Of a DNA stretch of 64,000 bases, positions 29,812-64,000 are shown piece after piece. The translations under genes were made by a program, and so were the position numbers. Where the stretch lies: positions 23,685 to 87,684 of the forward strand of contig JBIOVB010000016.1 of assembly GCA_044867525.1 (NCBI GenBank). The letters run 5' to 3'. Source of the DNA: Acidimicrobiia bacterium. Lineage in GTDB: Bacteria > Actinomycetota > Acidimicrobiia > Spongiisociales > ZC4RG35. Numbering within the stretch: the first letter of the stretch is position 1; each line of letters begins with the position of its first letter. The notes beneath the pieces were generated by a model that worked only from the letters and a program-made list of their open reading frames with translations, was not told the DNA's origin and made no database searches.

Positions 29812-30765
29812 TCAGTCCCCCGGAGCGAGGGGGGCCGGCATCGGGCGGCCGTCGAGGCCTGCCATCAGATTCTCGACCGCCAGGGATGCCATGCCGCGCC
29901 GCGCCGAGACCGAGGCGCTCCCGATGTGAGGGACCACCAGGCAGTTCGCCATCTCCAGCAGGGCATGGCCCGCAGGCAGAGGCTCGGGGTCGGTGACATC
30001 GAGCGCGGCGCCGGCGATCTGCGAGGCCCGGAGGGCTCCGGCCAGGGCATCGGTGTCCACCAGGCCGCCGCGGGCCACATTGACCAGGTACCCGGTTCGC
30101 TTCATCCTCTTCAACTCGTCCACGGAGATGAGGTTCCGTGTCTCCGGGGTCAGAGGCGCGGTGAGGAGCACGATGTCCGCCTCTTCGAGGAGCGTTGCCA
30201 GCGATACTCGGGTCGCTCCCGGTTCGGCCTTCTCCGACGGGGAAGCGTAGAGAACCCGCATGTCGAACCCAGCAGCGCGTCTAGCGATCGCAGACCCGAT
30301 GCGCCCCAGACCCACGATCCCCAGGGTCGAGCCATGGAGATCGCCACCCAGCATCGCCCACGGGTCCCAAACGCCCCACCGCCCGTCGCGCACCAGGTCC
30401 CTCCCTTCGGGGATTCGGCGAACGATCGCGGACATCAGGGCGAATGCAGTGTCGGCGACCGTCTCGGTGAGGACGTCTGGCGTGTGCCCGATGAGAATCC
30501 CTCGCTGCCCACACGCTGCAACGTCGATGTTGTCGACTCCGACCGCCATCTGGGAGATGACACGCAATGAGGGCCCGGCCTCGAGCAATTCCCGGTCGAT
30601 GCCGTCGACGAGCATCGAAAGCAAACCCTCACACCCGGCAACTCCCTCGAGTAGGGCCTCCCTGGGGGCAGGGCCTTCACCGTCCCAGAGCCCGACCTCT
30701 GCGAGAGTGCGCAGAGGCACCAGGATGTCCTCCGGTATGAGGTGGGACACGAAGACACGGGGCAC
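29812..30765 (-). CDS. D-isomer-specific 2-hydroxyacid dehydrogenase (glyoxylate/hydroxypyruvate reductase-like)
   Basis: Only the C-terminal 317 codons of track ORF 29812-31596 are plausible. They carry NAD-binding GIVGLGRIGSAIARR and catalytic-region VVPHIGSAS. The GTG 30765 start is supported by a TAGCCT hexamer 8 nt upstream. Confidence 0.8.
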   Translation of the reverse strand: MPRVFVSHLIPEDILVPLRTLAEVGLWDGEGPAPREALLEGVAGCEGLLSMLVDGIDRELLEAGPSLRVISQMAVGVDNIDVAACGQRGILIGHTPDVLTETVADTAFALMSAIVRRIPEGRDLVRDGRWGVWDPWAMLGGDLHGSTLGIVGLGRIGSAIARRAAGFDMRVLYASPSEKAEPGATRVSLATLLEEADIVLLTAPLTPETRNLISVDELKRMKRTGYLVNVARGGLVDTDALAGALRASQIAGAALDVTDPEPLPAGHALLEMANCLVVPHIGSASVSARRGMASLAVENLMAGLDGRPMPAPLAPGD

Positions 30766-45889: not shown

Positions 45890-46933
45890 TCAATCCGGAC
45901 CGCCGGACTCGAGCCTCTCGACGATGTCGCGGACCTGCTGCGACCTGTCACGGGGAACCACCAGCACTGCGTCGTCGGTTTCGATGACCACCACGTCGTC
46001 GAGACCGAGCACTGCGACCAGGCGTGACGTCGCCCGAACATAGGAGCCGGTGACCTCCGCGATCAGCACATCACCGGCAATCGCATTGCCGTCAGGATCA
46101 TGAGGCGTGACCTCCCAGACCGCCTGCCACGAGCCGACGTCACTCCAGCCGATATCGACAGGGACGACCACGGCTCTTTCGGTGCGCTCGATGACGGCGT
46201 GGTCGATGGAGATCGAGGGGGCTTCGACGAAGTCCGGGCCCAGCTCCACACGAGAACCCGGGTCGGGGGGCAGCGCCCGACCGACCGACGCCACGAGATC
46301 GGGCTCGACCGTTTCGCACTCCTCGAGGATGACACGCGCCGAGAACACGAACATCCCCGAGTTCCAGAGATGTCGCCCGTCGCTCAGGTACTCCTCTGCG
46401 AGCGCAGGCACCGGCTTTTCCTTGAACCGGGCCACCTGGAAGCCATCGCCGACCGCGTCTCCGATCTCGATGTACCCGTAGCCGGTCTCGGGACGGCTCG
46501 GTTGCACCCCGAAAAGGACGATCGACCCCGCTCGGGCAATCTCAACCGCAGATCCAACTGCAGTACGGAAGCCGTCTCGGTCGGTGATGACATGATCGGC
46601 GGGCAGCACCACCAGGATGTCGTCCGGATCGGCGACCAGGGCCGCGGCGATCACAGCAGGTGCTGTGTTTCGCCCCGAGGGCTCCACGAGGATGGAACGG
46701 ACCCCGACCCCCGTCGTGTCGACCGCGTGCGTCACCGCATCGAGGTGCTCGATCCCGGTGGCGATCAGCGCCGGAGCCACGCCCTCGAGACTTGCCGCAC
46801 GCGTGAGCGTGGCCTCGAACAGGGTGTGCCCCAGAAGATCGAGGAACTGTTTGGGATTGTCGCGAGTCGACAGGGGCCAAAGCCGGGTGCCGGAGCCCCC
46901 GGAGAGAATCACTGGCCGAACTGGGGATGACAC
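45890..46933 (-). CDS. manC: Mannose-1-phosphate guanylyltransferase
   Basis: The nucleotidyltransferase motif is ILSGGSGTRLWPLS. The GTG 46933 start is supported by a TACCCT hexamer 6 nt upstream. Confidence 0.8.
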   Translation of the reverse strand: MSSPVRPVILSGGSGTRLWPLSTRDNPKQFLDLLGHTLFEATLTRAASLEGVAPALIATGIEHLDAVTHAVDTTGVGVRSILVEPSGRNTAPAVIAAALVADPDDILVVLPADHVITDRDGFRTAVGSAVEIARAGSIVLFGVQPSRPETGYGYIEIGDAVGDGFQVARFKEKPVPALAEEYLSDGRHLWNSGMFVFSARVILEECETVEPDLVASVGRALPPDPGSRVELGPDFVEAPSISIDHAVIERTERAVVVPVDIGWSDVGSWQAVWEVTPHDPDGNAIAGDVLIAEVTGSYVRATSRLVAVLGLDDVVVIETDDAVLVVPRDRSQQVRDIVERLESGGPD

Positions 46934-50350: not shown

Positions 50351-53182
50351 TCACTCGTACGCCTCGAGCGGCGGGCAACTGCACATGAGATTTCTGTCTC
50401 CGCCGGGACCGTCGACCCGGCCCACCGGGGGCCAGTATTTCTCGCGTCCGGAGCCCGGGGCGGGAAAACCCGCGATCGAGCGGCCGTAGGGATGACCCCA
50501 GCCGTCGGCAGCAATGGCCTCTGCCGTGTGAGGTGCGTTCACCAAGGGGTTGTCGTCCCGGGACCACTCCCCGCTCTCCACCTTCCCTATCTCCTCGGCG
50601 ATCGAGATCATCGCATCGCAGAACCTGTCCAATTCGGCCAGGCTCTCGGACTCGGTTGGCTCGATCATGAGTGTCCCGACGACCGGGAACGAGAGCGTTG
50701 GAGCGTGGAATCCGTAGTCGGCCAGGCGCTTGGCGACGTCCTCTGCGTCGATCCCGGCGCTCCTGCCCATGGGTCGGACGTCGACGATGCACTCGTGGGC
50801 AACCCGGCCGTTCGATCCGCTGTAGAGCACAGGGAAGTATGGGTCGAGACGACGGGCCACGTAGTTCGCCGAGAGGATGGCGACCATCGATGCCTGGCGA
50901 AGCCCCTCGTCGCCCATCAACCGAATGAACGCGTAGGGGATGGGGAGGATCCCGGCGGATCCGTACGGCGCTCCCGAGACCGGGCCGATCCCATCGGACG
51001 GCCCCGCCCCCGCGTCCAGCGGGTGGTTGGGGAGGAAGGGTGCGAGATGGGACCGCGCGCCCACCGGGCCGACTCCTGGCCCGCCTCCGCCATGAGGGAT
51101 GGTGAAGGTCTTGTGGAGATTGAGATGCCCGATGTCGGCCCCGAGATCCCCGGGCCTCGCCAAGCCCACCATCGCATTGAGGTTGGCCCCGTCCACGTAG
51201 ACCTGCCCTCCGTGCTCGTGAACCAGCGAGGTGATGTCGAGGATGCCCTCCTCGAACACTCCGTGTGTCGACGGGTAGGTGATCATCAGGGCCGCGAGGT
51301 GATCGCCGTGCAACGCCAGCTTGGCCTCGACATCAGCCATGTCGACGTTGCCCTCGGGATCGGTGCCTACCACCACCACCTTCATCCCTGCCATGACAGC
51401 AGAGGCTGCGTTTGTCCCATGTGCAGAGGCCGGGATCAGGCAGACATCCCGCTGCCCCTCGCCACGATCCTGGTGATAGGCGCGGATCGACAGCAGCCCG
51501 GCCAGCTCTCCTTGGGAGCCTGCGTTTGGCTGAAGGGAGACGACGTCGTACCCGGTCAACGCACAGAGCTGGGCCTGGAGCCGGTCGACCAGCTCCCGAT
51601 AGCCGGCCGCCTGTTCCGCCGGGGCATATGGGTGGATCCTGCTGAACTCTGGCCAGGTGATCGGGATCATCTCAGTGGTGGCATTGAGCTTCATCGTGCA
51701 CGAGCCGAGGGGGATCATCGACCGGTCCAAGGCCAGGTCACGGTCGGCGAGCCGCCTCAGATAGCGGAGCATCTCGTGCTCCGAGTGGTAACTGCTGAAC
51801 ACCGGGTGGGTCAGGAACTCCGACTGCCTGCTCGCCCAGGGAGGGATGCCGGTACGCCCTGAGTCATCGCCGCTGTTGCCGACACCGAACGCAGCGAGGA
51901 CCGATGCCAGGACCTCTGGTGTCGTGGTCTCGTCCAGAGCCACTCTCACCCTGCCATCGTCGATCCGGCCCAGGTTCACGCCCGCGGCCAGTGCGGCAGC
52001 CAGGACTGAGCCCGCCCCTTCCGGCGTGAGCACGGTGAGCGTGTCGAACCACGAGTCGTTCTCCAACTCGCGACCCGACCGTCGCAGGCTCGACGCCAAC
52101 CTCGAAGTGAGCTCATGGGTCTCGATGGCGATGGCCCGGAGGCCGTCCGGGCCATGCCAGCAGGCATAGAGCCCGGCAATGACCGCCAGGAGCACCTGGG
52201 CGGTGCAGACATTCGAGGTCGCCTTCTCCCGGCGAATGTGCTGTTCACGGGTCTGGAGCGCCAAGCGGTAGGCGGTCTTGCCCGCCCGGTCGGTGGAGAC
52301 CCCGACGAGACGACCCGGCAGGGCGCGGACCATGCTCTCGCGGGTGACGATGAACCCGGCGTGAGGCCCCCCGTAGCCGAGCGGGACCCCGAAACGCTGG
52401 GCAGAGCCGACCGCGATGTCCGCCCCCCACTCGCCCGGTGGGGTGAGCAGTGTGAGGGCCAGCAGGTCAGTGGCCACGGCGACCAGCGCCCCATCGTCAT
52501 GCAGATCAGCGACCAACTGTCGGTGGTCGCCCACGTCACCCGACGACCCCGGATACTGGATCAGGGCACCGAACGCCGCGCCGGGCTCGATTCCCTCGGA
52601 CAGCATCCTGACCTCGATGCCCACCGCCTTTGCCCTGGTGCGCACCACTTCGATCGTGGGCACATGGCAGTCATCGTGGACGTAGAACACCTCGCGCCCT
52701 GACTTGCCGAGGCGGCGACACATCGCCATTGCCTCGGCGGCAGCCGTTGCCTCGTCGAGCAGGGATGCGTTGGCCACGTCGAGGCCCGTCAGGTCCGCCA
52801 CCATCGTCTGGAAGTTGAGGAGGGCCTCGAGCCGACCCTGCGATATCTCGGGCTGGTACGGGGTGTACGCCGTATACCAGGCCGGGCTCTCCAGCACGTT
52901 GCGCTGGATCACGGGAGGGGTGATCGTGTCGTGGTAGCCGACGCCGATCAAAGACGGGATCACCACGTTGCGCGACGCTATAGCCCGAAGCTCGGCCACA
53001 AGCTCGCCCTCGGAGATCGCGTCCGGGAGCTCGATTCCGGATCCGGCCCGGATGGCGGAAGGAATCGTCTCGGCCACCAGGGCCTCGAGGGATGGGGCGC
53101 CGACAGTGGCCAGCATCTTTTCGATGTCGTCGGGGCTGGGCCCGATGTGACGGTCGGCGAATCGCTCTCTGGGGTTGGGCAT
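50351..53182 (-). CDS. gcvP: Glycine dehydrogenase (decarboxylating), single-chain P protein
   Basis: 943 aa. The N-terminus [17 protein letters not shown] and the PLP region HLNLHKTF are classic GcvP. Confidence 0.95.
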
Positions 53183-53238
53183 CAGTCTCCTCAGGCTGTC
53201 AGCCCTCCCCCGCTGTCGTCACCTCCAGCGGCGCCTCG

Positions 53239-53320
53239 ACCGAATGGTCCACGTGCCTGAGAGTTTCCGGGGAGGAGTTGCCCCTTCGGCGCCCCGCAGC
53301 CCGGGGCTCTCCCATTCGGT
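53239..53320 (-). promoter_or_regulatory. Glycine riboswitch aptamer in the gcvP leader
   Basis: The minus-strand RNA reads ACCGAAUGGGAGAGCCCCGGGCUGCGGGGCGCCGAAGGGGCAACUCCUCCCCGGAAACUCUCAGGCACGUGGACCAUUCGGU. The P1 helix pairs ACCGAAUGG with CCAUUCGGU. The conserved GGAGAG, GCCGAAGGGGCAA and CUCAGGCA..GGAC blocks are present. GAGGAG and the gcvP AUG lie about 50 nt downstream. Confidence 0.85.
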
Positions 53321-53382
53321 GTCGAAGGCAGAGGTAATGATACGACGAACTTCGCTCCTCGCTGGAGATGTCTCATAGGGGG

Positions 53383-56709: not shown

Positions 56710-57612
56710 TCAGGCTGCGGCCGAGCGCAGCGCCCGGATCACCAGGTCGCGGTCGCCGAGGCGGCGCCTCAGCTCGCGCTCCAGGCCCCCTATCGGATAG
56801 AGGTTCTGCGGGGCCCGGGGATCCTTGTGGCGCGCCGAGGCATAGCGAGGGAGACTCGCCGACACCACGTGGGCAACACGCGCGGCATCGGCCACGGTCA
56901 TGTCCGCCTTCACCTCGCAACGGACGAGCCCGCCCGCCGGCCCAGAGCCATTGGCCAGCCTCAGATACCACGAGAACCGGCTCCATGAGGTCGTCGTGAG
57001 GAAGAGCGGAGTCCGATGACCCACGGGCAGCGTCCCCAGGGTGGCACGGAGATCATCGGGGAGATACTGCACGTGCTGGGTCTTCACGTAGCCCACGGCT
57101 CCCTCGACGTGCCTGCTGTGCGACAGCGGCCCATCGACCACGATCAGGGCGGCATCTGCATGATCGGAGGCGATCTCACCCTCGAGATCGCCCATTCTCT
57201 CCTGAATCCCGAGCCAGAGCTCCTCTGGGGTCGATCCCTTGGTGCTCATCACCTCGTAGCGGCCCACCTTGGTGTCGACCTCATCGGCCGGGACACCGGT
57301 GAAGATCCCCCTTCTCACCCTCGCTGCCACCACCGTGGCACCGCCGTTGCAGCGCACCGCCCCCGCGGCGAAGGTGGCCGCCAGGCCGAACCCGGGAAAG
57401 AGGTCATCCCGATCGATCCAGAGGTTGGCATCGACCCGGCGCACACCATCGACGAAGAGAATGTCGCTCGCCGGCTCGCACTCGGGGAGCAGCGGCCGCC
57501 AATTCTCCGGTGTGACCTCGACCGAGGGGTCGACCTTGTCGGTGGAGTCTGCAAGGTCGGCGTCCGAAGGCGATCCGTAGTCGGGATCCCAGGCTTCGAC
57601 GGTGAATCTCAT
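56710..57612 (-). CDS. NurA-like nuclease (putative)
   Basis: 300 aa. ILFVDGVRR near the N-terminus and LIVVDGPLSH mid-protein resemble the conserved acidic DG motifs of NurA. The gene has a 4-nt overlap with the rad50/sbcC stop and occupies the last position of a herA-mre11-rad50 cassette. Confidence 0.5.
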   Translation of the reverse strand: MRFTVEAWDPDYGSPSDADLADSTDKVDPSVEVTPENWRPLLPECEPASDILFVDGVRRVDANLWIDRDDLFPGFGLAATFAAGAVRCNGGATVVAARVRRGIFTGVPADEVDTKVGRYEVMSTKGSTPEELWLGIQERMGDLEGEIASDHADAALIVVDGPLSHSRHVEGAVGYVKTQHVQYLPDDLRATLGTLPVGHRTPLFLTTTSWSRFSWYLRLANGSGPAGGLVRCEVKADMTVADAARVAHVVSASLPRYASARHKDPRAPQNLYPIGGLERELRRRLGDRDLVIRALRSAAA

Positions 57613-59939
57613 ACGGCCACCTTCTCGATCGACGATGTCTCCGGCCCCTTGATGACTTCGAATCGGACTGGTATCCGCTCCGCCAGCTCTTGAACGTGAG
57701 TAACCAGGCCGACGGTCCGGCCCTGACCGGCGAGCTCGTCGAGCACCGAGGCCACGACGTCGATCGACTCCTGGTCGAGTGAGCCAAATCCCTCATCCAA
57801 CAACACCGACTCGAGCCGTGAAGAAGTCCCGGTCAGCTCGGCGAGCTGCTCCGCCATGGACAACGACAGAGACAGCGCCACCAGGAAGGTCTCCCCGCCC
57901 GAGAGCCCGCGCGTGGTCCTGGTCAGGTCGGCGTTGCGATGATCGACGACCTCGAACTGGCTGCGGGTAGCAATCAGGGAATAAGCGCCTCCGGTCAGCT
58001 CGTGAAGCAGCTTGTTGGCCCCGTCCACCAGGGTCTCCATTGCTTCTTCGAGAAGCCAGGCCTCGAAATTGCTGGACCTCAGGTGGTTCCCGAGAGAAGA
58101 GGCGACACGCGTCAGGCCCCGCTCCGCCTCGATCTGGCCACCCAACTCGTCGGCTTCGGCAATCGACTTCTCCAGCTCTTGGATCTCGGCTCGGCGCCGC
58201 TCCTCTGCAAGGGCCAGGTTGGCCTCGGGCGACCCGTTCGGTTCGACACCGAGGCCTTCGAGCCACCCCCGTGTCTCGTCGAGGGCCCGCGCGGCCTCCT
58301 TCTCGGCGCCCGCAACCTGCTGATCGAGCCGGTGGAGGTCGGCCTTGCGATCATCGACGCGTCCCTCTCGCCAGCCCACGAACGAGAGCCAGGCCGCGAC
58401 CGGGTCTTCCCCGGGTATCGGCGGCTTCTCGCCGGCCACGAGATCGCGAGCTGCCAGAAGGGTCTCGAAGAGCCCGGCCGCCCGCCGCGAGAGCTCGTCC
58501 ACTCTGGCCTTTGCCTCGTCGGCTTGATGCTGCGCTTCTGCGATCCTGAGCTCGGTCTCTGCTCTGGCTTCGAGCAGTTTCAGTAGCGAAGCGATCGACG
58601 ACGCCAGCTCTTCCGAGGGCGGCGCCCCCGCGAGCAACCCTTCGAGATCCGCTGCCTGCTGGTCCATCTGCTTGGCAACGCCCTCCGCCTCTTTGAGGCC
58701 ATCCCGGGCATCGGCGACCAGGGAATCGAGTTCGGCGACCTCTCCGACCAGACGTTCCATCGATTGACCGGGCCCGCCACTCGGGCTCGGGATTTCCTCG
58801 ATCGCCGCAAGGCACACCGGGCACACCTCCCCAACGACCAGGCCCTGGCGGACCGTGTGGGCCGCATGCTCCAACCTGAGGGAGCTCAGCTCTGCGACTT
58901 TCCGGTCCCGGGAGGCTGTCGTCACGGCCATGTGATCGCTCAGCGCCTTTAGGTCGAGAGCAGCTCGATCGACACGGAGTGAGTCCAGCCGATCGCGATT
59001 TGCGGCCCATCCCTCGAGCTTCGAAAGGGGAGTGAAGCCCTTGATTGCCGCATCAGCCGCATCGAGCTCGGCAACGAAGCCGGCCAGGAGTTGGGTCACT
59101 ACCTCGAGGCCTTCCTTCGCGTCGAGTCGGTCTTTCTCGATCGTGCCCAGATCCTCCGGTGCCGCTATCGACTCCAGGAGGCTCAGCGCATCGCCGGCTC
59201 CGGCGCGGGCCGCGCTCGCATCGAGGACGGACGCCTGGAGACTCTGCAGCTTCTCAACCCGCGAAGGCAGCTCCTCACGCGCCACGAGGATCGCCTCCAA
59301 ACCGGCCCGGGCCGCCTCGAGCTGCTCGGGGGTGGGCACCTCCAACTTGGCCAGGCTCTCCTCCATGGCCTGGGCCCGCCCCTCCGAGGTCTTGGCCCTG
59401 GCGTTTGCCAGCTGCATCACCTTCTCGAACAGCCCGACCTCGAGCAGCGCGCGAAGCAGCGCCTGGCGCTCTCTTGGCTTATCGGTGAGGAAGTCGGCGA
59501 AAGCCCCCTGCGGCAGGACTACCGCCTTGGTGAACTGGTCATATGTGAGGCCGAGGAGCTCGGTCACCCGGTCGGTGACCTCGTCGGAGCCTCGGGCCAG
59601 CACTTCGCCGCCTTTCCGCTCCAGGCTCGCCTCCGTGGTCGTGGCCCCTGAGCCTCTGCGCTCCACGAGGCGTGCGGCCACGAAACGCTCCTCTTCGACC
59701 GTGAAATCGAAGGAAACCCGGGCCCGATCGGCGCGGGCAGAGATGACAGGTGCCACGGAGCGGCGATCGTCGAGCCGGGGAATCGTGCCGTAGAGGGCGA
59801 AGACCATACCGTCGATCACGCTCGACTTGCCGGCGCCCGTTGGCCCGGACAAGACGAACAGGTCTGCTTCGGTGAAGTCGACCTCGGTGCGCTGCCGGTA
59901 GGCGAGGAACCCCTCCATCACCAGGAACTGCGGCCTCAC
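57609..59939 (-). CDS. sbcC: SbcC/Rad50-family SMC-like ATPase
   Basis: Walker A LSGPTGAGKSS, a long coiled coil with a CPVC zinc hook, signature LSGGETFLVALSL, Walker B VLLDEGFGSLD. Confidence 0.9.
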   Translation of the reverse strand: MRPQFLVMEGFLAYRQRTEVDFTEADLFVLSGPTGAGKSSVIDGMVFALYGTIPRLDDRRSVAPVISARADRARVSFDFTVEEERFVAARLVERRGSGATTTEASLERKGGEVLARGSDEVTDRVTELLGLTYDQFTKAVVLPQGAFADFLTDKPRERQALLRALLEVGLFEKVMQLANARAKTSEGRAQAMEESLAKLEVPTPEQLEAARAGLEAILVAREELPSRVEKLQSLQASVLDASAARAGAGDALSLLESIAAPEDLGTIEKDRLDAKEGLEVVTQLLAGFVAELDAADAAIKGFTPLSKLEGWAANRDRLDSLRVDRAALDLKALSDHMAVTTASRDRKVAELSSLRLEHAAHTVRQGLVVGEVCPVCLAAIEEIPSPSGGPGQSMERLVGEVAELDSLVADARDGLKEAEGVAKQMDQQAADLEGLLAGAPPSEELASSIASLLKLLEARAETELRIAEAQHQADEAKARVDELSRRAAGLFETLLAARDLVAGEKPPIPGEDPVAAWLSFVGWREGRVDDRKADLHRLDQQVAGAEKEAARALDETRGWLEGLGVEPNGSPEANLALAEERRRAEIQELEKSIAEADELGGQIEAERGLTRVASSLGNHLRSSNFEAWLLEEAMETLVDGANKLLHELTGGAYSLIATRSQFEVVDHRNADLTRTTRGLSGGETFLVALSLSLSMAEQLAELTGTSSRLESVLLDEGFGSLDQESIDVVASVLDELAGQGRTVGLVTHVQELAERIPVRFEVIKGPETSSIEKVAV

Positions 59940-61066
59940 GTTTGTATCGCCTCCTGTTCGAGCTCGCGAAACAGGTCGAGCACCGCCGGGTCATCCACGC
60001 CTTTGGCGGACAGGTAGGTGGCGAACAGGTCGACCGGGGATCGTCCCGCCCGGCTCACCCTCTCCCGGCGCTCCACTTCGTCTGAGCGTTCGATCACCAC
60101 GTCGACGGCGCCGGGGATCGCGGCACGAACTTCGTCGTTGAGCCCGGAGCGGGCCTTCTCGTCGAGGATGACCTTGACATAGGCGTCGGTGACGTCTCCC
60201 GCCATGGCTATCACCTGCTCCAACGTGCCGGTCAACTGCACGAGCCTGGTCCCGCTGACAATGGGGATCTCCTCGACCTTTGCCGGCTTGCCCGCCTCGG
60301 CTTCCACGAGGAGCACTCCTTTCCGGTCGCCGACCTCGCCAAAGTCGAGCGGCATCGGCGACCCGCTGTACCAGACCGGGGCCGGAGCAGCCACCTTCTG
60401 CTGCCTGTGGAGATGGCCGAGCGCCACATAGCTCAAGTGCCCCGGGAAAGCCTGCGGGGGGATGTCGTAACCCATGATGTGGGAGTCCCGTTCGCCCCCA
60501 CCCGTTGTCGCCCCATAGACGAAGGCGTGGCCGATCACGACGTTGACGGTGTCGACGCCCATGTCCCCGGTGAGCGCCTCGATCACCTTTCTCATCCGGT
60601 GCTCGTAGGTCTGCACGTGTTGATCGGGATCGAGTCCCATGATCTGCTCCGCCTTGATGATCCCTCGTTGCGATACGAAGGGCAGAAATGCCGCCCGAAG
60701 GCCGAGTTCTTGGAGGTGGGCCACCCCACCATCACCTGGTGGCAAGGGCCGGGACACGACCCGGATCCGTCCCAGGTCGAGCAGGGGTTTGATGGCATCG
60801 AGACGGGCCGCGTTGTCATGGTTGCCGCCGACCACCAGCACAGGGCCGACTTCGGCCAGGTCGAGCAGGGCCCGATAGACCACGGCCTCATCCTCCGGCG
60901 ATGGAGAGGAGACGTCGAACAGATCACCTGCAACCAGGGTGGCGTCCACGAGTCGATCGCGGGCTATACCGGCGATCTCAACCAGCACCGCACGGTGCTC
61001 CTCCACGCGGGATCGCCCCCGGATCCTCCTCCCCACGTGCCAATCGGACGTATGGAGCAGCCTCAT
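59936..61066 (-). CDS. sbcD: SbcD/Mre11-family nuclease
   Basis: Phosphoesterase motifs MRLLHTSDWHVG, GDLFD, GNHD and GHLH. It has a 4-nt overlap with sbcC. Confidence 0.9.
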   Translation of the reverse strand: MRLLHTSDWHVGRRIRGRSRVEEHRAVLVEIAGIARDRLVDATLVAGDLFDVSSPSPEDEAVVYRALLDLAEVGPVLVVGGNHDNAARLDAIKPLLDLGRIRVVSRPLPPGDGGVAHLQELGLRAAFLPFVSQRGIIKAEQIMGLDPDQHVQTYEHRMRKVIEALTGDMGVDTVNVVIGHAFVYGATTGGGERDSHIMGYDIPPQAFPGHLSYVALGHLHRQQKVAAPAPVWYSGSPMPLDFGEVGDRKGVLLVEAEAGKPAKVEEIPIVSGTRLVQLTGTLEQVIAMAGDVTDAYVKVILDEKARSGLNDEVRAAIPGAVDVVIERSDEVERRERVSRAGRSPVDLFATYLSAKGVDDPAVLDLFRELEQEAIQT

Positions 61067-61128
61067 CGGAGCCAGAGCTCTTTCATTCCTCCGATCGTAG
61101 GACCGGGGTGGGACAGATCCTGGTAGTC

Positions 61129-62802
61129 CTAGAGGTCCTGGAAGGGGTCCTCCGGCGAGTCGGCCCGGGCGGGAAGCGCCCCGGCCTCAGAAGCTCGAGT
61201 GGCCCAGGCGGGAAATGGGAACTCGAGGACCAAGGGCACAGGGAGCTCCGGCTGGGCGAGGAGCATCGTGCCCGGTTTGAGGATGGTTGCCCGCTGGCGT
61301 TGCGCAGCAGGAAGGAAGCCGTACTCCTCGCGTGACGCCTCGGCAGAGTCCAGTCGACCCACGACCCTGATCGATGAGTTGGCGATGATGCGCCGCTCCA
61401 CTTCGGAAGCGGTCTGCTGCGCGCCGATCAGGATCACCCCCAACGACCGGCCCCGCTCCGCCACGTCGAGGAGCACCTCCTTGATCGGGCTGAATCCCTC
61501 CCTGGGGGCGTACTTGTTCAACTCGTCGAGGACCAGGAACAGCAGCTCTTCGGACTGCCCGGCATTCTCCTTGTCCTCGAAGGCTCGCCTCACCGTCACC
61601 CCGACCACGAACCGCTTCGCACGATCGTTCAGGTTGTGGAGGTCGACCACTGTCACCTGGTGGCCCTGGACATCGATGTTGTGCCGCGCCGGATTGGCGA
61701 TGTCCCCCCGGATCAGGCGCTCGACGTGGCGCACGGATCCCTGAAGGCGGCGGACGAATGCGTTGACCGTGCCCTGCCCGATGTGAGGCCCGGCCCATTC
61801 GAAGTTCGAGTCATCCTGTTGCACCTTCCTCGTAACCAGGTCGACCAGCTCGCGAAAGGTGCGCACCGTTTCGCCCTCGATCCTCACCGAGCCTCCATCG
61901 GCATCCTCGGCATGCCTCAGCTGGGCCATGACGTTGTAGACGACCATCGTGTACTGAGCCCGCTCGTCCTCGGCGTCGGCGAAGAGGAACACCATCAGGT
62001 CCTCGTGGCAGAACTCGGCGAGCGTCCAGAAGAACGATGTGATGTCGGGACGGGAGCTGACCTCGGCCACGGCCTTTTCGGATCCGACCCGGGGCGGGGC
62101 GAACAGCCCCACAGAGTCGAACGGCCCGGCGGGTAGGCCGAGATCCTTGTATCGGCGCCGGGCATCGTCGTCGAGGCTGCGATTGGGGCGGTCGATGTGG
62201 AGCAGGTCCTCGCCCTTGACGTTGAAGATCAGCGCCTTGGTGTTGACCGCCGCCGCAGCCAGGACGCCGGAGGTGAACAGCGAATGGAGTAGGAAGGTGG
62301 CGTAGCTGGTCTTGGTGGCCACACCCGACACTCCAGAGATGTTGACGTGGGCACCACGTTGTCCGTTGAGGAACTCGAAATTGGCAAAGAGCGGCTCTCC
62401 GTTGCGGGACGCACCAACCGGGAACTTGCGATCCATGCGGTCGAAGAACAGGGCCTGCTCCCGCTCCTCGCCCTGAGCTCTCCGCACCGGTTGCCCGGGC
62501 CGCGGGGGCACGAAGATCTCCGGCTCCACCCGTGTCGCGGTGACCTGCGCCGCCTCGACGACCTCGGCGGGCAGCACCCCGTCCTCGATGAGGAACACGT
62601 CGGAGTCGAATCGAGCTCCCTCGTGGCGCGCCCTCACCTGGCTCACCGTCCCGAAGATCTTCACCAGCTCACCGGATGGGAGCACTCGCTCCAACGCGAC
62701 CACGTCGTCGAGCTCCAGGTATTCACCGTCGGCGACGCCCACCCAGAACTCGAGCGGCGTGGCGTCGACGGTCCCGATCACCCGACCGACCATCTCCTCC
62801 AT
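61129..62802 (-). CDS. HerA-like (FtsK-HerA superfamily, DUF87-type) ATPase
   Basis: Start reset to ATG 62802; the upstream 125 codons of the track ORF are Arg/Gly-rich. The protein has an N-terminal HAS-barrel-like region (GRVIGTVDATPLEFWV), a P-loop-like GVSGVATKTS, a Walker B LLFLVLDELNKYAP, and GAQQTASEV. Confidence 0.7.
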   Translation of the reverse strand: MEEMVGRVIGTVDATPLEFWVGVADGEYLELDDVVALERVLPSGELVKIFGTVSQVRARHEGARFDSDVFLIEDGVLPAEVVEAAQVTATRVEPEIFVPPRPGQPVRRAQGEEREQALFFDRMDRKFPVGASRNGEPLFANFEFLNGQRGAHVNISGVSGVATKTSYATFLLHSLFTSGVLAAAAVNTKALIFNVKGEDLLHIDRPNRSLDDDARRRYKDLGLPAGPFDSVGLFAPPRVGSEKAVAEVSSRPDITSFFWTLAEFCHEDLMVFLFADAEDERAQYTMVVYNVMAQLRHAEDADGGSVRIEGETVRTFRELVDLVTRKVQQDDSNFEWAGPHIGQGTVNAFVRRLQGSVRHVERLIRGDIANPARHNIDVQGHQVTVVDLHNLNDRAKRFVVGVTVRRAFEDKENAGQSEELLFLVLDELNKYAPREGFSPIKEVLLDVAERGRSLGVILIGAQQTASEVERRIIANSSIRVVGRLDSAEASREEYGFLPAAQRQRATILKPGTMLLAQPELPVPLVLEFPFPAWATRASEAGALPARADSPEDPFQDL

Positions 62803-62808
62803 GTGCCG

Positions 62809-62814
62809 AGAGTA
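62809..62814 (-). promoter_or_regulatory. -10-like hexamer TACTCT, 6 nt upstream of the herA-like ATG 62802
   Basis: The plus strand reads AGAGTA. Confidence 0.4.
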
Positions 62815-62843
62815 GACCTCGCCGGCGACAGGAAACGGTCTCG

Positions 62844-62849
62844 TAGGGT
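62844..62849 (+). promoter_or_regulatory. -10-like hexamer TAGGGT, 7 nt upstream of the mannosylglycerate-synthase-like GTG 62857
   Basis: TANNNT match in the 54-nt divergent gap shared with the herA-like gene. Confidence 0.4.
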
Positions 62850-62856
62850 GACCGCG

Positions 62857-64000
62857 GTGAGCCTGGTGGTGTTCCCTTTCAAGGACGAGGATCCGGCAAC
62901 GGTCGGCGCCAACCTGAAGACCGCAGCGGCCCACCATGGAGTCACCGAGGTTTGGGCCGTGGCCGCGACCGACAGCTCCCAAGCCGCCCGGGTGACGGCA
63001 ATCACCGAGGAGATCGCTGCCGGGTCGGGCAAGGCAGTTCGCGTGCTGGCCCAGGAGAGAATCGGCCGCTTCCGGCCCGGCAAGGGTGACGCCATGAACA
63101 CGGCCATCTCCGCCGCCGCCAAACAGGGTTGGGAGCGGGCGCATTTCTTCGATTCCGACATAACCAACTTCGACCACTCATGGATCGATGGGGCCGAGGC
63201 CGCGGCCGACCAGGGATATGGCGTCGTGAGGCACCGATTCCCACGTGCCGCCACAGATGCGATGATCACCTGGATGGTGACCAGGCCCAGCCTGGCCCTT
63301 CTCTTTCCCGGCACATTCCTGCCACGCCTCGATCAGCCCTTGGGAGGCGAGCTGCTCCTCACCGGCCCCGCCCTCGAACTCCTCGTTCGCTCCGATCTGG
63401 TGCGGGATCGCTCGGACTGGGGGATCGACACCGTCATCACATACGCAACCGCCGTCATGGGGCTCGGCCTCTACGAGCATCACGTCGCCGACGGGAAGAG
63501 GCACAGCCTCTACGGCTCGCTGGAGGAGTTGCGGCCGATGCTCATCGAGTGCCTGGCGGCGGCGGTCTCCTTGCGCGGACTGCCCGGGCCCGATGCCGGG
63601 GCACGTCACGGCAGCGATCCCACTCAGCCGGTCCCGCCCGACCTGCTCACGACCGTTGCCTACGACTTCGAGGAGACCACGCTCATCCTCTCCACGCCGC
63701 TCTCGGGAGGAGAGACGGAGCTGATGGCAAGGATGCCCGACGCGGGACGCATCCAGCGCCTGGCCGACCCGGTCCGCCCGTTGCCCGAGCTCATGGACGC
63801 CTCGACCTGGCTCGACACGTTGCGCTTCCTCCACGATGGCTTCGAGATCGGCGAGTCGGCTTGGGAGGCGCTGGCATTCCGGCTGTGGCTGCACCGTGTG
63901 GTCTCCTACACCATGGAATGGGTGCCCAAGGGCTACCAGGCCGCGATCGGGCACCTGGAGGACACGATCCGTGACTACGAGGCCGCCGCAGACCACCATT
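62857..64000 (+). CDS. Mannosylglycerate synthase-like glycosyltransferase (GT78-type), 3' end outside the window
   Basis: This frame is not in the ORF track because it has no stop in the window. The plus frame from GTG 62857 is open for 381 codons. It reads VSLVVFPFKDEDP...RPGKGDAMNTA...HFFDSDITNF...VRHRFPRAATDAMITWMVTRP...QPLGGELLL...RSDWGIDT...LYGSLEELRPMLIEC. From memory this is collinear with Rhodothermus marinus mannosylglycerate synthase. Confidence 0.7.
   Translation, partial: MSLVVFPFKDEDPATVGANLKTAAAHHGVTEVWAVAATDSSQAARVTAITEEIAAGSGKAVRVLAQERIGRFRPGKGDAMNTAISAAAKQGWERAHFFDSDITNFDHSWIDGAEAAADQGYGVVRHRFPRAATDAMITWMVTRPSLALLFPGTFLPRLDQPLGGELLLTGPALELLVRSDLVRDRSDWGIDTVITYATAVMGLGLYEHHVADGKRHSLYGSLEELRPMLIECLAAAVSLRGLPGPDAGARHGSDPTQPVPPDLLTTVAYDFEETTLILSTPLSGGETELMARMPDAGRIQRLADPVRPLPELMDASTWLDTLRFLHDGFEIGESAWEALAFRLWLHRVVSYTMEWVPKGYQAAIGHLEDTIRDYEAAADHH

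Follow-up and report, generated by a model that had tools for sequence, protein, structure and literature searches.

The gene at the 3' end of the window

The window (the whole stretch of 64,000 nucleotides analysed here) ends within a gene for a mannosylglycerate synthase (MGS) of glycosyltransferase family GT78. The coding sequence lies on the plus strand (62857..64000) and comprises codons 1-381 of 384, the final three codons and the stop extending ~11 nt past the window end. From 62857 onward it reads GTG AGC CTG GTG GTG TTC CCT TTC AAG..., and translation bears out the original prediction that this plus-strand frame stays open to the window end, yielding 381 residues without a stop. As that prediction also said, the list of open reading frames without open ends holds just two shadow ORFs here, 63129-63974 (+) and 63178-63999 (-). 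The real frame is present in the open-ended ORF listing, as 62347..63999 (+) and open at its 3' side; it is absent from the other list because that listing drops frames running off the window end.

The strong GC3 bias ascribed to this frame is also found, GC at the three codon positions being 68/49/84% inside the ORF, a strong coding signature. In the same frame 5' of 62857, GC is highest at position 1, as expected if the minus-strand herA, and not the MGS frame, codes there. The GTG at 62857 is aligned with Met1 of the Rhodothermus marinus enzyme and with the start sites of most orthologues. The protein database contains the complete product of this very gene, 384 amino acids long and ending ...DHHWPI; the window is hence short of only three codons and the stop. 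The unlisted frame is confirmed as a real, intact gene for mannosylglycerate synthase. It is the single GT78 match in the window, within which no second copy was found.

Family assignment and fold

The product is formed by the two domains typical of the family. The GT-A catalytic domain (Pfam MGS_GT, PF21969; residues 2-237; 62860..63567, +) is recognised with an E-value of 6.8e-85 and 284.8 bits, and the helical C-terminal domain (MGS_C, PF21967; residues 266-370; 63652..63966, +) with an E-value of 3.9e-16 and 59.7 bits, the cut-off being 27 in both cases. The Pfam search of the product returned no domain besides these two, and the NCBIfam search no match. A phmmer search against PDB sequences matched only the R. 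marinus mannosylglycerate synthase (E 1.4e-87), with residues 2-371 aligned on residues 2-371 at 43% identity. The collinearity originally proposed thus holds over nearly the whole protein, and the R. marinus motifs quoted with it are all found in the PDB sequence.

The AlphaFold2 model of the product, calculated with 33 homologues, has a pLDDT of 95.2 and a pTM of 0.92, and exhibits helices at 271-377 in its C-terminal part. The eight best Foldseek matches are all chains of R. marinus MGS (2bo4/2y4j), superimposed with TM-scores of 0.93-0.95 and rmsd values of 1.4-1.5 Å over 378-383 columns. The next family is that of mycobacterial GpgS (GT81), with TM-scores of 0.48-0.50, and the MpgS enzymes of GT55 and GT81 reach 0.46-0.48. 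Both Pfam domains, collinearity, fold and functional residues (see below) agree with the predicted GT78 assignment, and the similarity to GT78 enzymes is highly significant; membership of the product in this family is essentially certain. The family is a known one and the assignment is routine, as standard pipelines (Pfam, JGI) can already name the gene.

The MpgS (GT55; GT81 in Rubrobacter) and GpgS (GT81) proteins are, like MGS, retaining GT-A enzymes making glycosyl-(phospho)glycerates, and they share with MGS the DXD motif and the carboxylate-binding Thr (PMC2581804). They differ in using 3-phosphoglycerate, in needing a phosphatase and in the lack of the MGS_C domain. Their likeness to the window protein is limited to the GT-A core. 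Membership of the window protein in the GT55/GT81 MpgS/GpgS families was considered and rejected, as there is no Pfam match and the TM-scores are only 0.46-0.50, at 15-26% identity.

Functional residues

Residues were compared in an alignment of 129 family members, comprising 119 close hits and 10 distant representatives. The window protein retains E11, Q66, K76, D99/D101, R130, T133, D134, T138, L162, W188, D191, H216, Y219 and M228, each of which is likewise conserved in 118-119 of the 119 close hits. The DXD motif (D99-S100-D101, R. marinus D100-A101-D102; 63151..63159, +) harbors D101, a predicted metal ligand; the second predicted ligand, by alignment with R. marinus His217, is His216 (63502..63504, +). 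This metal site is invariant, being present in 119/119 hits and 10/10 representatives. The acceptor loop, aligned with that holding the glycerate carboxylate in R. marinus, reads R130-A-A-T-D-A-M-I-T138 (R. marinus R131...I138, T139; 63244..63270, +). It includes I137, the equivalent of R. marinus Ile138, also conserved in the window protein, and R130, whose R. marinus counterpart Arg131 we take to be a ligand of the acceptor carboxylate; this position is invariant in the alignment.

In the R. marinus enzyme, donor binding involves Glu11 at the ribose and Gln66 at the guanine (PMC2581804, citing Flint 2005). Lys76, Asp100 and Asp192 form a network, the metal is bound by Asp102 and His217, and the carboxylate of glycerate is held by Thr139 and the amide of Ile138 (PMC2581804). 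The carbonyl of Leu163 is located at the β-face of the donor, Trp189 and Met229 are part of the sugar pocket, and Tyr220 is named as well (PMC2581804). Two differences are observed. The DXD motif reads DSD in the window protein, as compared to DAD in R. marinus and in 117 of the 119 hits. Besides, Arg218, the R. marinus residue adjoining the metal-binding His, is replaced by Ser here, and by Ala, Thr or Ser throughout the clade.

Intactness and selection

Soil-metagenome contigs from four runs (two studies) span 62600-64000 with no indel and 5-12 substitutions. Inside the ORF, 19 strain variants are observed, 10 synonymous and 9 non-synonymous. The dN/dS values against orthologues at 88, 88 and 73% identity are 0.13, 0.14 and 0.17, respectively, and the gene is under purifying selection.

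That the frame might be a decaying, non-functional remnant or an assembly artefact has next to no probability. It could be argued from the stop codon falling outside the window, and from one orthologue, in a Microflora-Danica MAG (L041 6001-7148), that runs for just 269 amino acids to a stop, by real disruption or by a long-read indel error. Against this stand the full product of 384 amino acids on record, the intact state of every catalytic residue, the four other assemblies and the dN/dS values of 0.13-0.17. The original prediction had named a frameshift or stop upon re-sequencing as one point of failure; the four metagenome assemblies exhibit no frameshift. On the indel-free assemblies and the dN/dS values, the pseudogene reading was rejected.

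The divergent herA cassette and the shared intergenic region

Upstream of the MGS gene, four genes on the minus strand form a cassette (56710-62802): herA (61129-62802), sbcD (59936-61066), sbcC (57609-59939) and a last, NurA-like gene (56710-57612). The HerA protein (554-557 amino acids) is not recognised by Pfam; it matches a bacterial HerA in the PDB (7f6d, E 5e-145). To note, the herA start is probably the ATG at 62802 (557 amino acids), with a TACTCT located 6 nt upstream, the gene callers having used in relatives the in-frame ATG at 62793 (554 amino acids).

Neighbouring genes in 77 orthologous loci were scored by tblastn together with called genes. In 75 of the 77, MGS is divergent to the herA-sbcD-sbcC-nurA cassette, with a median herA-MGS gap of 66 nt, and the arrangement is also found in a lineage at 49% MGS identity. 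A compact divergent control region of ~54-75 nt between the two genes is kept in 75/77 species. Conservation extends to a wider block that spans nurA to a GSDH gene, so the herA/MGS adjacency may be mere inherited synteny.

In the window, the intergenic region common to herA and MGS is 54 nt long (62803..62856) and exhibits conserved GTAGAC and GACAGG blocks. The first, GAGAGTAGAC (window 62803-62840), provides on the minus strand the -10-like TACTCT, 6 nt before the herA ATG at 62802. The second, GACAG(G/AT), within the same interval (62803-62840), reads TGTC on the minus strand. Both are conserved in most of the 77 loci. The minus-strand layout, TGTCG-N11-TACTCT, presumably resembles a RecA-NDp promoter of the PafBC type.

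On the MGS side, a TAGGGT hexamer (62844-62849, +) is located exactly 7 nt 5' of the GTG, as originally predicted, and could serve as a -10 element for a leaderless transcript. A TANNNT hexamer precedes the aligned start by 6-8 nt (by 10 nt in one case) in 47 of the 77 orthologous loci, its inner letters varying (TAGGGT, TATGGT, TAGGCT, TATCCT, TAATCT, TAGTCT). This placement is the geometry of leaderless actinobacterial transcripts, which makes the hexamer a putative promoter element. A search for RNA runs containing the gene found none. A scan for E. coli-type promoters and terminators found nothing, as expected since this is actinobacterial DNA at 66% GC. Only 11 nt separate the MGS hexamer from the GACAGG block, and the putative promoters of herA and MGS may interfere with each other or be co-regulated. 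Pursued further, this arrangement could point to a single desiccation-survival module, in which solute synthesis would be co-regulated with double-strand-break repair and a coupled YdcZ-type protein would handle the solute or a precursor; we consider such a module unlikely.

Downstream gene and sugar-nucleotide neighbours

Relatives at 73-88% identity provided the context 3' of MGS. On the two closest contigs, a plus-strand gene for a YdcZ-family DMT protein of 144 amino acids (PF04657, E 2.9e-22; L001 11143-11577 and L002 11152-11586) overlaps the MGS stop by ATGA. Among the 50 loci having a YdcZ gene, it is within ~100 nt of MGS in 22, and ~25 more loci have a convergent 1.25-kb MFS gene between the two. 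In the host of the window, the YdcZ gene is presumably located just past the window end, and its product may transport the solute or a precursor.

None of the genes adjoining MGS in this clade is a sugar-nucleotide or D-glycerate-forming gene. The two genes put forward as sources of donor and acceptor do exist in the window: manC (45890-46933, -) possesses the NTP_transferase and ManC β-helix domains (TIGR01479, 364 bits), and the D-2-hydroxyacid dehydrogenase (29812-30765, -) has glyoxylate reductase and GhrB as its best NCBIfam matches, below their cut-offs. These genes are 16 and 32 kb from MGS, and their link to it is one of metabolic plausibility, not of clustering.

Two other GT78 lineages do have a gene of this kind next to MGS. 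The GT78 gene of a second Acidimicrobiia clade is divergent to, and adjoins, an orthologous manC (L087 2679-4953; L088 3700-5974). Its protein is 397 amino acids long, 39% identical to that of the window, and named just 'glycosyltransferase' by NCBI. The neighbourhood of these two loci (menC, cytochrome c, DinB, manC ... gcvP) is that found around the window manC, the ManC proteins being 47% identical; the GT78 gene sits there between the menaquinone genes and gcvP, where the window has an ABC-2 transporter cassette instead. In another lineage, at 40% identity (L083 6001-7936), a gene for a 266-residue NTP_transferase follows MGS by 11 nt, and the pair looks like a two-gene unit of sugar-nucleotide enzyme and transferase. 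The manC and NTP_transferase neighbours in these two lineages support GDP-mannose as the donor. To note, a glycine riboswitch aptamer (Rfam RF00504, 67.8 bits; 53235-53324, -) is located upstream of the window gcvP (50351-53182, -).

Proposed reaction and physiological role

The product is very probably a one-step MGS that would convert GDP-mannose and D-glycerate into the compatible solute α-mannosylglycerate. As the identity to the only structurally characterised member is 43%, we infer the product, and with it donor, acceptor and physiological role, by analogy with R. marinus MGS (PDB 2bo4-2bo8, 2y4j-2y4m). The two proteins are alike in length, in their two-domain organisation, in sequence over 370 residues and in fold, as well as in the DXD and His metal site, Gln66/Glu11, the mannose pocket and the Thr139 acceptor site. 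They differ in their hosts, a marine thermophile for R. marinus MGS and a mesophilic soil actinobacterial lineage here, in the DAD/DSD motif and the Arg218/Ser position, and in gene context, the window gene being divergent from herA and coupled to a ydcZ-like gene. The window protein also belongs to a separate, well-supported clade.

Transcription would probably yield a leaderless mRNA from the TAGGGT -10 element, and in the closest relatives translation of MGS would be coupled to that of the small YdcZ-type membrane protein. By the R. marinus analogy, the enzyme would be a cytoplasmic, metal-dependent, retaining GT-A glycosyltransferase with GDP-mannose as its donor. Gln66 would recognise the guanine of this donor and Glu11 its ribose, and the diphosphate would be held via a divalent metal on Asp101 (of DSD) and His216. 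The mannose would occupy the pocket built by Lys76-Asp99-Asp191, Leu162, Trp188 and Met228, and the carboxylate of glycerate would be held by Thr138, the amide of Ile137 and Arg130. Mannose would then be transferred to the 2-OH of free D-glycerate with retention of configuration, in one step and without a phosphorylated intermediate. The mannosylglycerate formed would most likely be a compatible solute against osmotic or drying stress in this uncultured soil Acidimicrobiia bacterium.

The main rival to this assignment is a true GT78 enzyme with shifted donor or acceptor preference, the product of which would be glucosylglycerate, mannosyl-lactate or another glycosyl-hydroxyacid. R. marinus MGS is promiscuous in vitro for both donor and acceptor, a complex of it with lactate is found in the PDB (2y4j), the tree places the clade of the window protein well apart from that of R. 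marinus and Closterium, and the clade-wide Ser, Ala or Thr in place of Arg218 is next to a metal ligand. Conversely, all the residues named for guanine, mannose pocket and carboxylate are conserved, the GT78 genes of two other lineages adjoin ManC-type or NTP-transferase genes, and we know of no GT78 member described with another natural product. A different product appears improbable, with perhaps a slim chance of being correct. Smaller still is the likelihood that mannosylglycerate is made by this enzyme mainly as a primer or intermediate of a larger glycoconjugate, and not as a free compatible solute. The translational coupling to a membrane protein gene in the closest relatives could be read in this way, and an actinobacterial precedent exists in the mycobacteria, where glucosylglycerate primes the methylglucose lipopolysaccharide (GpgS/MGLP, PMC2581804). 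Against it, no further glycosyltransferase, methyltransferase or acyltransferase gene is found alongside MGS in the 77 loci, whose conserved neighbours are DNA-repair and transporter genes. The free compatible solute made in one step from GDP-mannose and D-glycerate is the reading we retain.

Distribution and phylogeny

Thermophiles and red algae, along with a small number of other organisms, are the main known sources of mannosylglycerate, and to our knowledge very few of these have a characterised one-step GT78 route. The original prediction that this route is known from very few bacteria stands as far as characterised enzymes are concerned, as well as for CAZy in 2012, when GT78 had two entries only (PMC3342304). 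It does not stand for sequence data: with each GTDB species represented by one genome, relatives are encoded in at least 147 species-level genomes, and the best 80 of these 147 are almost all MAGs of Acidimicrobiia or Actinomycetota. A word-indexed search, in which 8,000 candidates were scored, gave at least 726 proteins at E ≤ 0.001, the best 120 of which all possess both MGS domains. Many orthologues in Acidimicrobiia MAGs are automatically named 'mannosylglycerate synthase' (JGI) or 'mannosylglycerate synthase domain-containing protein' (NCBI). The family is a narrow one nonetheless, with 106 matches at E ≤ 0.001 and 23 at E ≤ 1e-30 out of 1.84 billion 50%-identity representatives. Neither a description of MGS in Acidimicrobiia nor an assayed member of this Acidimicrobiia GT78 clade turned up in full-text literature searches.

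In the maximum-likelihood tree, the Acidimicrobiia clade that contains the window protein is well supported (99/95), R. marinus and Closterium form a neighbouring group (88/86), and the second Acidimicrobiia GT78 clade is present as a deeper one. Eukaryotic members are not limited to Closterium: the matches among the 50%-identity clusters include charophyte (Closterium) and Chromera sequences, and GT78 has been reported in Selaginella, Physcomitrella and Coleochaete (PMC3342304). These plant and algal homologues (Selaginella, Physcomitrella, red algae, charophytes) share their family with the window protein, and differ from it in grouping with R. marinus or on other branches, outside its clade.

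The wide spread of the MGS gene in mesophilic soil Acidimicrobiia is the point of interest here, a modest one. From the 147 or more species-level genomes that encode it, mannosylglycerate is predicted to be in common use as a stress solute in an abundant lineage of mesophilic soil bacteria, of relevance to the survival of such bacteria during drying, and the clade may offer new mesophilic enzymes for the biotechnological production of mannosylglycerate. To note, many MAGs, among them those of Microflora-Danica loci (L003, L008, L011, L013 and others), are titled 'uncultured Acidobacteriota bacterium', and match the Acidimicrobiia MAGs in both MGS gene and synteny; the titles of these bins look like mislabelled taxonomy.
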